A stretch of 64,000 nucleotides of DNA, from contig JAJRYD010000004.1 in assembly GCA_024275955.1 (NCBI GenBank), forward strand, positions 69,346 through 133,345. The letters run 5' to 3'. The notes below the pieces were generated by a model. That model was not told the origin of the DNA. It did no database searches and saw only the letters and a list, made by a program, of their open reading frames with translations. Positions 11,354 to 39,780 of the stretch are shown in pieces; position 1 is the first letter of the stretch; each line of letters opens with the position of its first letter. Source of the DNA: Nitrospirota bacterium. Its GTDB lineage: Bacteria; Nitrospinota_A; UBA7883; JACRGQ01. Made by a program: the position numbers and the translations under genes.

Positions 11354-11535
11354 GGCAATGTATCAGTTTGAAAATTACAGTCATTATTATTCTCCTCCCC
11401 TCGCGAAGCTAGAGGTGAGAGTGTCCCCCGCGAGTGCGGGACGGAGGGGCTACCTTAAGGGGTACCGCCCCTCAGCCTCCTCCTTTCTCAAAGGAGGGGA
11501 ACCACTGAAATTTAAACTGACACACTACCAAAAAA
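11354..11535 (+). repeat. ~176-bp hairpin-rich repeat, copy A (candidate structured ncRNA or PATE/MITE-like element)
   Basis: Aligns along its full length with 39604..39780. Terminal inverted similarity TCAGTTTGAAAATTACAGT / ACTGAAATTTAAACTGA, with internal hairpins. Confidence 0.6.
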
Positions 11536-11686
11536 GCTGGCACGGCACTTTTAGAAGATTTAACAAAACTATAAAGCTATCTTCCCAAAACAGACCGCGA
11601 TTAAAGAGAGTATAGAGCCTAGCTGGTTTAGCGGTTTTTCCGGTTCAACAAAGTTTGCGCCTGACCAGAAAGCGATGAAGCGGTTC

Positions 11687-13657
11687 TCACTCCGGCGGGA
11701 TGACGCGGTTGTCTCTTATCAAGTCGGAACTGAACTTCACATACTCCTGCAGAGATTTAATAAGTTTTGCGCTCTTTGCCTTACTCTCCCCCGCGATATT
11801 TTTGGTTTTATCTTTTGAAATATTATAGAGGGCGAGGCTCTTTTCAAGGTCTGACAAAAGCATGTAGTCATCCTCTTGGTATACAAAAAGATCGCCTCGC
11901 GGAAGTACCGCCTTTCTTTTCCCCACAGAAAAAAGCGACTTGCCCCACGAGGTAAACGGGGAACTACTCTGCATAATATCCATAATGGTCGGGAAAATAT
12001 CGAGCTGTGTCGCCACGCCCGAAAACCGGCCAGCCTTCACAATATCCGGCGCGTAGAACAGCATAGGCACCGAGTAAGATTCGTAAAGCGAGCCGCTGGT
12101 CGACTCCCCTTCGGCATGATCCCCAACGATAACGAAAATGGTGTTACGAAAATAATCGGACTCCTCGGCTTTTTTGAAAAACCGTGCCAAAGCCCAATCG
12201 GAATATTTAAGCGAATTGAGAAACGGCGCGAACGCCACAGAGTCATCAAATTTTTTAAAAGCCCCTTTATCGGGAAAACTGTACGGCGAATGGGAGGTAA
12301 GCGAAAAGACTACCGCCGCAAACGGTTTTTTAGATTTTTTAAATTCCTCGTCCGCGCGTCCGAAAATAAACTCGTCGTATATCCCCCACACTGGATCGTT
12401 ATTCTCTTTCGTAAGCTCGAAATCGTCCCTTGATATATGGTTTAAAAACCCAAGCCTTTTAGCAAGCCCGTCAAAACCCATCGACCCCGGCCTAGCGCCA
12501 TGAATAAAAAACGTATCGTATCCGCGCTTTAAAAAAAGAGACCCGATAGGCAAAAAGCGGGTCTGGTACAAAAGCCCTCCCTGCCCAAGCACCATCCCTT
12601 TCCATACAGGAAGCGAACCCATTATAGCCGCAAGCCCTTCTATCGACCTTTGGGCGTTGGCAAGCGCGTTGGTTGCCAAAAACCCTTTGGCTGAAAGAGC
12701 GTCGAAATTCGGCAAAGCGGAATATTGCCCGCCAAGCTTTTTTGAAAACTTGGCGGACCAGCTCTCCATTACAAAAATCACCACATTGTAGCGGCGCGCC
12801 TCCTCTGGAAAGTAATCGAAACTTCTCGCAAGCGGATAGCTATCGTCTACCGTCTCCCTTTCGCCGTCAACAAGGCTTTTGAAAAATTGTTCCCTATTTT
12901 CCGGCAAGACCGGCAAAGAGTCGAGATAAGCAAAACCTCCTTCCCCCTTATAGCTCCTGTAGACGGTACTAAAGGTGGTATAAAGCCCGTTAAGGCTAAG
13001 GATGCCAAGCTCCACGTTTTCGTCCTGAAAAGCATTTTTTACGCCAAGCGGCTTCATCTGCAAACCGCCTCTGATAAAAACAACGCTTAAAAGTAGAATC
13101 ACGGCCAACGCTATAGGGCCGGACACAACATCCTTTTGATGGTCTAACATAAGAGCCCTTTTCTTTTTGCGCAGAAAAAAAGAGACAACCCCAAGGAAAA
13201 ACCACGCATAAACGGCAAGCCCAAGCCCGCCTATCAATATCCATGGCAGGTAGCTCTTTACAGCCAGCATCAGCATCACGTCTATATCGCCGGCTACATT
13301 GACTATCTCAAACGTCATATGCCGCTGTACGAACGAGAAATAGGCTACATCCGCAACGTTCCATATTATCAAAAGCAGTTCCCAAAAAAGCATGAGATAA
13401 AGAAGAGGTTTAACCAACCGCATCCGGTTAGGTACGCCTGGGAAAAATATCAAAAGCGTAAAAGGCGAAAGCAAAGTGGCGGCGGTGGAAAAATCGAACC
13501 TTAACCCGCCGAGCATCGCGATAGATATCTGCCAAAATGAAACATTGCTAAAAAGGGCGATGTACTTAAAATAAAAAATAAAGCGGACAACGGTAAGGGC
13601 CGCTACGAAAAGCAAAAGCAAAGAGAGGAAAAACGAAACCCTTTTCCAAAAACCCAT
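11687..13657 (-). CDS. LTA synthase/phosphoglycerol transferase family protein (sulfatase superfamily, N-terminal 5-TM domain)
   Basis: N-terminal TM helices plus an extracytoplasmic sulfatase domain (VVIFVMESWS; HSPY; GDH). Confidence 0.75.
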   Translation of the reverse strand: MGFWKRVSFFLSLLLLFVAALTVVRFIFYFKYIALFSNVSFWQISIAMLGGLRFDFSTAATLLSPFTLLIFFPGVPNRMRLVKPLLYLMLFWELLLIIWNVADVAYFSFVQRHMTFEIVNVAGDIDVMLMLAVKSYLPWILIGGLGLAVYAWFFLGVVSFFLRKKKRALMLDHQKDVVSGPIALAVILLLSVVFIRGGLQMKPLGVKNAFQDENVELGILSLNGLYTTFSTVYRSYKGEGGFAYLDSLPVLPENREQFFKSLVDGERETVDDSYPLARSFDYFPEEARRYNVVIFVMESWSAKFSKKLGGQYSALPNFDALSAKGFLATNALANAQRSIEGLAAIMGSLPVWKGMVLGQGGLLYQTRFLPIGSLFLKRGYDTFFIHGARPGSMGFDGLAKRLGFLNHISRDDFELTKENNDPVWGIYDEFIFGRADEEFKKSKKPFAAVVFSLTSHSPYSFPDKGAFKKFDDSVAFAPFLNSLKYSDWALARFFKKAEESDYFRNTIFVIVGDHAEGESTSGSLYESYSVPMLFYAPDIVKAGRFSGVATQLDIFPTIMDIMQSSSPFTSWGKSLFSVGKRKAVLPRGDLFVYQEDDYMLLSDLEKSLALYNISKDKTKNIAGESKAKSAKLIKSLQEYVKFSSDLIRDNRVIPPE

Positions 13658-13661
13658 AGCT

Positions 13662-14579
13662 TTATCTGTAAACCGTCAGACTGCCGGCATCGGAAATCTC
13701 AAAACTGCTTTCGCCGTCAAAAAGGTGAGAATAATCTTCGCCGTCCAGCTGTACCGGCGGAGGCGAATCGAACGAGAGCTTTAAAGGAACATCGCTCGAC
13801 ACGGCATCGGCCTTAAAAAAAACTCGCCCAAAAAACGGCCTATTAAGCATAAGCTTCGCCACGGCAAACCTTGTTTGCGCAAAAAGCAGTTCCAGCCGGC
13901 CGTCGTCATGCTTCCCGTTTTCGGAAAAACGAGCACCGCCGGCGTAGCTCTTAAGGTTGGAAAAGATAATGTTAAAGCTCTCCCCTTTGTCGGTTTTAAG
14001 CATCTTTCTGTAAAAGAGGAACGACGGCAAACCGTAAAGAAACCAAAGAAACATTTTGAACAGAGGTATTTTCATTAAAAATGAATCTTTATACCCCGCT
14101 ACCCCTTTCTCGTACTTGCCTACGACAAAAGCATCGAAACCAAACCCGATAAAACCAGCGAAGTACGCTTTGCCGTTGACGCAAAAGATGTCGAGATCCT
14201 CTCTTTCGGGGTTACCGGCTACCTTTTTCAAAAGCTCTGCCAGAGGCCTCGGCTTAAAGCCGAGGCTCCTCCAGAGGTCGTTGCCGGTGCCTACCGGAAA
14301 GATAGAGACCGCCCCCTTGTACGAAAGTTTTTTCAAAACATTTACAACATGGTGAACCGTGCCGTCGCCTCCGCAAATGAGCAAAACGTCGCACTCAGCT
14401 ATCGCCTTTTCGCACCACGAGGTATTGCCACCTTTTTCCGTAAACCCGATGAAGGAGACCACGCCTTCAAGCGACGCGTCGTTTTTGACAGCTGTCTCGA
14501 TTTCGCTTTTAAGCGTGGCTCCTCTGACGTTACCGGCAAACCTGTTTATGAGAACCGATACCTTCCTTAAAGAACCCAA
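13662..14579 (-). CDS. Diacylglycerol kinase catalytic-domain lipid kinase (YegS/DgkB-like)
   Basis: DAGK_cat motifs VLLICGGDGTV and PVGTGNDL. Confidence 0.8.
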   Translation of the reverse strand: MGSLRKVSVLINRFAGNVRGATLKSEIETAVKNDASLEGVVSFIGFTEKGGNTSWCEKAIAECDVLLICGGDGTVHHVVNVLKKLSYKGAVSIFPVGTGNDLWRSLGFKPRPLAELLKKVAGNPEREDLDIFCVNGKAYFAGFIGFGFDAFVVGKYEKGVAGYKDSFLMKIPLFKMFLWFLYGLPSFLFYRKMLKTDKGESFNIIFSNLKSYAGGARFSENGKHDDGRLELLFAQTRFAVAKLMLNRPFFGRVFFKADAVSSDVPLKLSFDSPPPVQLDGEDYSHLFDGESSFEISDAGSLTVYR

Positions 14580-39035: not shown

Positions 39036-39040
39036 ATCAG

Positions 39041-39475
39041 CTACTCCACCAACGGCCGAGGAATGAATGAGGCTTTCATCCCTTCTTCTTCGGTTGCTTC
39101 GTACTTAGATGGACAACTTGTAAGAAGGGTGTGTGCTTCGAACTTTCCAGAAGACTGGTCGAACTTACCTTGAACGACAACATCTATATCGTCATCAAAA
39201 AGGTCGGGAAGGGCGCCTCTGTACGTTACAGGTATATTTTCGCTATCGTCGGTAAGCATAAAACTCGCGCCAAGGGAGTCTTTGTCTTTTTGAATCGAAC
39301 CGGCAAGTACCAGCCCCTCTATTCTCATATCCTCTGTAGAACTCTTCATAGGAACAGCTTCCGTAACGGTTAGGTAATAAACAGAAGTCTCTTCAATGCC
39401 TGTGTAGACGAGATAAGTGATGGCGACGACCACAACAGCGGCGCCCGCAAAAAACTTGGATTGATTGTTCTTCAT
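39041..39475 (-). CDS. ccmE: Cytochrome c maturation heme chaperone CcmE, CxxxY variant
   Basis: N-terminal TM anchor and OB-fold; LTSCPSKY replaces the canonical LAKHDENY (Cys in place of the heme-binding His, Tyr conserved). Confidence 0.8.
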   Translation of the reverse strand: MKNNQSKFFAGAAVVVVAITYLVYTGIEETSVYYLTVTEAVPMKSSTEDMRIEGLVLAGSIQKDKDSLGASFMLTDDSENIPVTYRGALPDLFDDDIDVVVQGKFDQSSGKFEAHTLLTSCPSKYEATEEEGMKASFIPRPLVE

Positions 39476-39603
39476 ATTGTACAGCCTGCTCCCATGTATG
39501 TGTAATGCTTCAGTGGGTGTTATCTATCCAACTCAGGTGCCTAAGGAAAGATACTATACCACCCGACAGACCTACAGGCAATAATCTAGAAAAATGGCGA
39601 TAG

Positions 39604-39780
39604 GCAGGGTATCAGTTCGAAAATTACAGTCATCTTTCTCCTCCCAATTGCAAAGCAGAAGGTGAGCTGTTCCGCGAGTGCGGAATGGAGCGGTTATCCT
39701 TAAGTGGTACCCCTTTTAAGCCCCCTCCTTTGAGCAAAGAGGGGAAGCCACTGAAATTAAAACTGATGTGCTACCGAAGG
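39604..39780 (+). repeat. ~176-bp hairpin-rich repeat, copy B
   Basis: Aligns with 11354..11535. The central hairpin TTCCGC-GAGT-GCGGAA versus CCCGC-GAGT-GCGGG shows compensatory changes. Confidence 0.6.

Follow-up and report, generated by a model that had tools for sequence, protein, structure and literature searches.

The Correia elements of Neisseria and the enterobacterial ERIC elements are transposable elements of the miniature inverted-repeat kind (MITEs) that lie between genes, are often co-transcribed with their neighbours and fold as RNA, their terminal inverted repeats (TIRs) forming a long RNA stem; for both, a role of the RNA in processing or stability, or as a roadblock, has been proposed. 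Palindrome-associated transposable elements (PATEs), and the insertion sequences (ISs) of the IS200/IS605 group, have, as is well established, neither TIRs nor a target duplication. MITEAba12 was defined as a MITE of ISAba12 by identity confined to the repeats and by a duplication of matching length (PMC6382973), and ISs of the IS1 family have GGnnnTG ends and are flanked by 8-9 bp direct repeats (PMC10425158, Table 8; PMC6807381). Here we describe a hairpin-rich repeat found as two copies, A and B, in 64,000 nt of DNA from a Nitrospirota bacterium (Nitrospinota_A in the GTDB lineage; contig JAJRYD010000004.1, positions 69,346 to 133,345), a stretch referred to below as the window. An earlier note on this DNA had suggested that the repeat is a PATE or a small RNA gene family, with selection acting on its secondary structure. 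Our analysis indicates that both copies are very probably short, non-coding and non-autonomous derivatives of the IS1 family, that is, MITEs.

Limits and ends of the two repeat copies

With their limits refined (Table 1), copies A and B align end to end with 77% identity over 170 nt (blastn, E 1e-27), close to the roughly 75% over ~176 bp estimated before. They are 23% diverged, with 40 substitutions, and their homology breaks off abruptly at either side, with GGCA as the left limit and TACC as the right one. All of the conserved blocks described previously were present, each exactly twice in the window; two long conserved blocks have two occurrences each in the 64 kb, compared to 0-0.03 expected by chance. 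A covariance model built from A and B, and run with filters off, found no third copy in the window.

Each copy is bounded by TIRs of about 26 bp (GGCAATGTATCAGTTTGAAA... / ...TTTAAACTGACACACTACC). The 3′ end had been recognised as an inverted match of the 5′ end, and this match reaches further out than was seen at the time, to GGCA.../...TACC. In copy A, the better preserved, all of the outer 16 TIR positions are paired if G-T pairing is counted, and the ends (GGCAATG and GGTAGTG) are accompanied by a perfect 8 bp duplication. In copy B both ends are mutated, reading GGCAGGG on the left and GGTAGCA on the right. The combination of TIRs and an adjoining duplication is the signature of insertions made by DDE transposases; an RNA gene would not be expected to show it.

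The same features bear on the proposal that the repeat is a PATE derived from IS200/IS605, moved by the Y1 (HUH) transposase whose gene is in the window and inserted 3′ of a TTAC-type tetranucleotide. Like PATEs, the window copies are small, repeated and contain hairpins; the element does include a TTAC as well as several hairpins, and a Y1_Tnp-like open reading frame (ORF) is indeed present. PATEs, however, depend on Y1 and are without TIRs or duplications, whereas the window element has both, and ends of the DDE type, so that membership of the PATE/IS200 class is refuted. The TTAC, which the earlier note took for a target or cleavage tetranucleotide, is internal to the left inverted repeat and does not flank it; the left flanks are AAAAAAGC in A and TGGCGATA in B. 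The ORF, previously listed as an IS200-like transposase gene, gives a weak and partial match, and is situated 5.4 kb from B and 22 kb from A, beside a copy of a different repeat family. This origin has practically no probability, and what stands of the PATE proposal is that the repeat is a small, non-autonomous mobile element.

Some minor features were seen around these ends. The sequence TGGCA occurs 8 nt past the right end of A and 9 nt past that of B (11530-11543; 39776-39790). On the right side of copy B, ATGGCAGTA resembles the left flank ATGGCGATA (7/9) but is displaced by 8 bp, which may be due to chance or may represent a rearranged duplication. A possible third relic at 48093-48231, with partial matches to the right TIR in direct orientation (48093-48114, TGAAATTCAAACGGA; 48212-48231, CAAACTCATCCACTACC), was rejected, as its local alignment score was not above that of shuffled sequences.

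Related ends and their transposase in other genomes

A degenerate pattern was fitted to all four ends (ACTGN{0,2}AWWTTNRAACTGAYNNNYTRCC). It matched four times in the window, once at each end, and not at all in shuffled sequences. In species-representative genomes it retrieved 38 loci from many phyla, compared to about 13 loci expected by chance (our own estimate, from the information content of the pattern), and one viral contig was hit in addition. Loci fetched from other genomes carry an L number below. Across 30 of the 39 loci hit by the pattern, along with plasmid locus L157, 45 ends are within three mismatches (<=3) of a tighter, 22 nt consensus, GGTAGTGGGTCAGTTTGAAATT, and the agreement extends to positions that the pattern had left free. 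Since 45 ends converge on one consensus, the pattern matches are not random.

Paired ends of this type fall into a MITE-sized class (79, 79, 110, 152, 191, 193, 194, 194, 198 and 298 bp) and a larger class (742, 1299, 2381, 2528 and 3421 bp, plus 2634 bp in L157). Perfect 8 bp duplications surround the elements in L123, L131, L135 and L147, and duplications matching at 7/8 positions were found for the L134 element and both L141 elements.

Four of the six larger elements (2.4-3.4 kb; L131, L136, L137 and L157) are whole, and each carries a single IS1 family DDE transposase of ~285 aa. The best match of these related transposases is NCBIfam transpos_IS1 (E 1e-15 to 1e-19), and two scores to Pfam DDE_Tnp_IS1 (33.2 and 26.4 bits) are above the cut-off of 24.1. 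In each of L127, L136 and L148, a transposase homologue with 52-61% identity adjoins this type of repeat, and fragments do so in two more loci; in L127 and L148, the same transposase gene is beside one such end. Plasmid homologues, 61-72% identical, carry the RefSeq name 'IS1 family transposase'. One of them is on an Acidiphilium multivorum plasmid (NZ_CP041717, L157), where the 2634 bp element has the same TIRs and an 8/8 duplication, AAGCCGAG.

Could the parent have belonged to IS6/IS26 or IS1595 rather than to IS1? The ends of the ISPna2 group of IS1595 are GGCnnTG, with 8 bp repeats. GGnnnTG is also common to most IS6/IS26 members, which make 8 bp duplications (PMC6807381), and the related transposases do give weak IS6 and IS240 matches. 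On the other hand, the full 22 nt consensus borders elements whose transposase is best described as IS1, with Pfam DDE_Tnp_IS1 above its cut-off, NCBIfam values for IS1 far stronger than those for IS6 (1e-6 to 1e-8), and homologues that RefSeq assigns to the IS1 family. A parent from one of these other families is thus highly improbable.

The single-ORF ISs of the IS1 family, in which passenger genes are optional (L157), share with the window copies the TIR consensus GGTAGTGGGTCAGTTTGAAATT, the GGnnnTG start and the 8 bp duplication, and their left and right inverted repeats (IRL and IRR) differ slightly from each other, as they do in the window. In contrast, the window copies are only 173-176 bp long, are without a transposase and have an interior unrelated to that of any element recovered. 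What they have in common with the autonomous ISs of 2.4-3.4 kb in other genomes is the TIRs and the length of the duplication.

At 176 and 173 bp, the window copies are within the size range of MITEs (about 50-600 bp). They show no similarity to an IS1-type transposase, and for the ORFs overlapping them, no frame is conserved between A and B and no Pfam family is matched. An 85 aa ORF runs across A, and by eye the same frame seemed to be free of stops across B, but A and B read the conserved CCGCGAGTGCGG block in different frames and no Pfam family is hit, and a protein-coding role was rejected. Also set aside was an outward-facing, minus-strand Shine-Dalgarno sequence with an ATG (GGAGGAG...ATGACTGTAATTTTC), which leads only into ORFs of 15-16 codons that enter unrelated flanks; its conservation was ascribed to the inverted repeat.

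MITEs of similar size were found in other phyla: in Chryseobacterium (193-194 bp; L134, L141), Pyrinomonadaceae (191-198 bp; L122, L155) and Acidobacteriota (152 bp; L147). They have the same TIR consensus as the window copies, duplications of 7-8/8 and hairpin-rich interiors that all fold strongly, but apart from the TIRs nothing is held in common, the interiors being unrelated, which suggests that each lineage made its own MITE.

MITEAba12 resembles the window copies in being small, non-coding and bounded by TIRs, with a duplication of the same length as that of its IS; it retains the duplication in 40% of copies (PMC6382973), and in the window too not every copy keeps it. It differs in that the ISs sharing its TIRs (nine characterized) mostly generate 9 bp duplications, compared to 8 bp here, and in that it folds with about -25 kcal/mol, compared to -60 to -83 kcal/mol for the window copies, the interior of which is GC-rich and not AT-rich (PMC6382973). 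A further difference is that, for the window copies, the ISs with matching ends come from other genomes.

In the mechanism we propose, a DDE transposase of the IS1 type, whose gene lies or once lay in another part of the genome, would have moved the copies in trans by binding their inverted repeats and inserting them at a target cut with an 8 bp stagger. Both copies would by now be old and decaying, lying passively in intergenic DNA 5′ of minus-strand genes, with B the further gone. Their age is judged from their mutual divergence and from the loss, in B, of the duplication and of outer repeat bases.

Several observations weigh against an IS1-type MITE. Only two copies are available. At copy B the flanking positions agree at just 2/8, with no clean 8 bp repeat. 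The TIRs of the window match 16-19 of the 22 consensus positions and no more, and, as the search pattern was derived from the window repeats, agreement at its constrained positions is partly built in. With NCBIfam the related transposases score 57-69 bits, short of the equivalog cut-off of 100, and within the window there is no IS1-type transposase or full-length IS (tblastn, best E 0.013). Lastly, A and B are oriented alike with respect to the genes downstream, and both fold better as minus-strand RNA, leaving room for a secondary role as RNA.

Taken as MITEs, the repeats are a new family in an under-sampled phylum, derived from a known IS family, and are ordinary relics of mobile DNA. They mark this Nitrospinota genome as a former host of an IS1-type transposon, and probably of a second MITE family. 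The 22 nt consensus in combination with the 8 bp duplication provides a reusable probe, by which related elements were recovered from at least seven phyla.

Passenger genes lie between the TIRs in L131 (2145-4525), L137 (1544-4071), L136 (2689-6109) and L157 (767-3400), and include a SocA/Panacea antitoxin-like gene, a proteasome-subunit-like gene and several hypotheticals. Such passenger-carrying IS1-type elements are transporter-IS-like, with conserved ends that recur in at least seven phyla.

Table 1. Positions in the window of the two repeat copies, their component parts and nearby features
Feature	Position	Strand	Remarks
Copy A, probable MITE	11354-11529	+	176 bp; written IRL to IRR as in related full-length ISs; better-preserved copy
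Target-site duplication of A, left	11346-11353		AAAAAAGC; abuts TIR; 8/8 identical to 11530-11537
Target-site duplication of A, right	11530-11537		AAAAAAGC
Left TIR, copy A	11354-11381	+	GGCAATGTATCAGTTTGAAAATTACAGT; 17/22 to cross-phylum consensus; GGnnnTG start
Right TIR, copy A	11504-11529	-	Inward GGTAGTGTGTCAGTTTAAATTTCAGT; 19/22 to consensus
Central GC hairpin, copy A	11427-11440		CCCGC-GAGT-GCGGG
Second hairpin, copy A	11476-11499		CCTCCTTT-CTC-AAAGGAGG
Copy B, probable MITE	39603-39775	+	173 bp; same orientation as A; more decayed, outer TIR positions mutated
Left TIR, copy B	39603-39630	+	GGCAGGGTATCAGTTCGAAAATTACAGT; 16/22 to consensus
Right TIR, copy B	39750-39775	-	Inward GGTAGCACATCAGTTTTAATTTCAGT; 16/22 to consensus
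Central hairpin, copy B	39670-39685		TTCCGC-GAGT-GCGGAA; one compensatory C-G to T-A change relative to A
Second hairpin, copy B	39721-39745		Stem shifted relative to copy A
REC gene	10475-11266	-	Neighbour of copy A
Sulfatase-family gene	11687-13657	-	Neighbour of copy A
ccmF	37062-39035	-	Near copy B
ccmE	39041-39475	-	Neighbour of copy B
MIP pseudogene, truncated	40220-40438	-	Neighbour of copy B
lpxA	40685-41455	-	Near copy B
Y1_Tnp ORF	33802-34191	-	129 aa; Pfam 25 bits, profile positions 37-121
First-family repeat	959-1086
First-family repeat	26898-27025
First-family repeat	31478-31605
First-family repeat	33525-33652
First-family repeat	36315-36442
First-family repeat	36764-36891

Hairpins, RNA folding and selection

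The hairpins that gave rise to the idea of a structured RNA are present as described. The central hairpin shows a C-G to T-A double change between the copies, and the second hairpin is retained too, having undergone one double and one one-sided change. If this represents an RNA, it would be a family of structured small RNA genes, or a cis-regulatory RNA of 5′ untranslated regions, transcribed from the minus strand and having a multi-hairpin fold with a long terminal stem under selection. Fold energies lend this some support, as both copies fold more stably as the minus strand (sense for the genes nearby): -82.7 kcal/mol (z -6.2) for A, compared to -68.4 (z -4.7) for the plus strand, and -60.6 kcal/mol (z -3.5) for B, compared to -52.1 (z -1.8). 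The minus strand folds better because the mismatches in the end-to-end pairing are G-U on that strand, and in the terminal stem of copy A all of them are G-U there. An RNAalifold consensus of A and B contains 51 pairs, with two compensatory changes and eight one-sided compatible ones. Moreover, since every gene flanking the copies is encoded on the minus strand, A and B are upstream of their neighbours, and in the same orientation: A is 88 bp from the REC gene (counted from the TTG at which the listed ORF starts) and B is 128 bp from the start codon of ccmE. The earlier note had correctly placed both copies in intergenic DNA, but downstream of these two genes.

Selection on the fold was examined by mapping the structure of one copy onto the other. 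Of the 66 pairs of A's fold, when mapped on B, 40 are unchanged, six have one-sided compatible changes, none is compensatory, 18 are broken and two are gapped. Relocating the same substitutions at random gave 18.6 +/- 2.4 broken pairs (P 0.47), a test that has low power with only two sequences, and the number observed is that expected under neutrality. Stems were not depleted of substitutions, with rates of 24% at paired and 22% at unpaired positions. In the reverse comparison, B's fold on A, only eight pairs are broken compared to a null of 13.7 (P 0.009); fewer breaks are expected in this direction if B is the decayed version of a highly paired, A-like ancestor. Compensatory pairs (1-2 observed) are at the level expected by chance, about one by our own estimate for 40 substitutions and ~60 pairs. 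The claim that selection has preserved the secondary structure was therefore not borne out, and, when only two copies are at hand, a more stable fold of one strand together with one or two "compensatory" pairs does not demonstrate selection at the RNA level.

The strand asymmetry is within the spread seen for the related MITEs of other phyla, where strand differences reach 13 kcal/mol in either direction and two Chryseobacterium copies of one family are opposite in sign. Strand-specific selection was rejected as an explanation on this basis, and because three G-U positions would all point the same way with a chance of 1 in 4. As these MITEs are all hairpin-rich, a hairpin-rich interior is a generic property of the group and not a selected RNA fold. 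The long terminal stem is likewise accounted for without RNA, by the TIRs, the 8 bp duplication and the homology to the ends of IS1-type ISs.

Other searches also failed to favour an RNA gene. The Rfam scan recommended in the earlier note (Rfam 15) returned no match in the window at gathering score, and at E up to 10 it gave nothing above noise (miRNA models at 14-18 bits, for example), with no match to the element at either setting. Promoter- or terminator-like sites were absent in or beside copy A and within copy B; three promoter-like sites occur near B but outside the element. The nearest relatives by CcmF are ~72-73% identical, and those with a name are metagenome-assembled genomes of Nitrospinota or Nitrospinae. 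Neither the element, searched for with the covariance model, nor its repeat core was detected around ccmE-ccmF of the two nearest relatives (L116 and L117; loci up to 10 kb on each side). The degenerate end pattern matched no Nitrospinota genome among the species-representative genomes. The conserved 22-mer of the left end had no match in genome, metagenome and viral collections, and although the right-end 18-mer had 115 metagenome matches, none extended past ~20-31 nt, and so all were taken as chance. A blastn search of plasmids with copy A found nothing. On balance an RNA gene family or cis-regulatory RNA is very unlikely, and the repeats should not be filed as a candidate non-coding RNA family; read as IS1-type MITEs, they leave the current understanding unchallenged.

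A middle course would be that the MITE has been co-opted, its copies being transcribed on the minus strand within the 5′ leaders of REC and ccmE-ccmF, where the very stable multi-hairpin RNA would serve in processing or stability, or would form a roadblock to transcription. This would explain both the shared orientation and the fact that the mismatches are solely G-U on that strand. The analogy would be to the Correia and ERIC elements, which the window copies resemble in being intergenic and in having a long stem formed by the TIRs; the length of the duplication and the repeat sequence are different, and no sign of transcription or RNase III processing, nor of promoter or IHF sites, was seen here for the window copies. 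Co-option is, in our view, very unlikely.

Gene neighbourhood and the first repeat family

The genes on either side of the two probable IS1-type MITEs are listed in Table 1. The REC gene had been annotated previously as REC-PilZ, but the PilZ domain gives a weak match (E 0.004) that is below the cut-off.

Copy B lies where genes are decaying, next to a truncated aquaporin pseudogene. Within the region 39776-40674, this MIP pseudogene retains only ~70 residues from its start, the first NPA motif among them, and it is separated from copy B by ~445 bp of non-coding DNA. In relative L117, the gap from lpxA to ccmE is occupied by tonB-exbD-exbB instead. Both of the nearest Nitrospinota relatives have an unusually long intergenic region, of 550-595 bp, upstream of ccmE (L116, 7308-7856; L117, 8974-9567), and these long non-coding regions show no similarity to the MITE.

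The window also contains six copies of another repeat, of ~133 bp, referred to in Table 1 as the first family. Its ends, GGG(A/G)CTGTT(T/G)CC... and ...GGCAACAGCCCC, form an inverted-repeat pair, and judging by sequence this family also looks MITE-like. The Y1 ORF lies ~150 bp from one of these copies, and may be a degraded gene or a RAYT-like gene.

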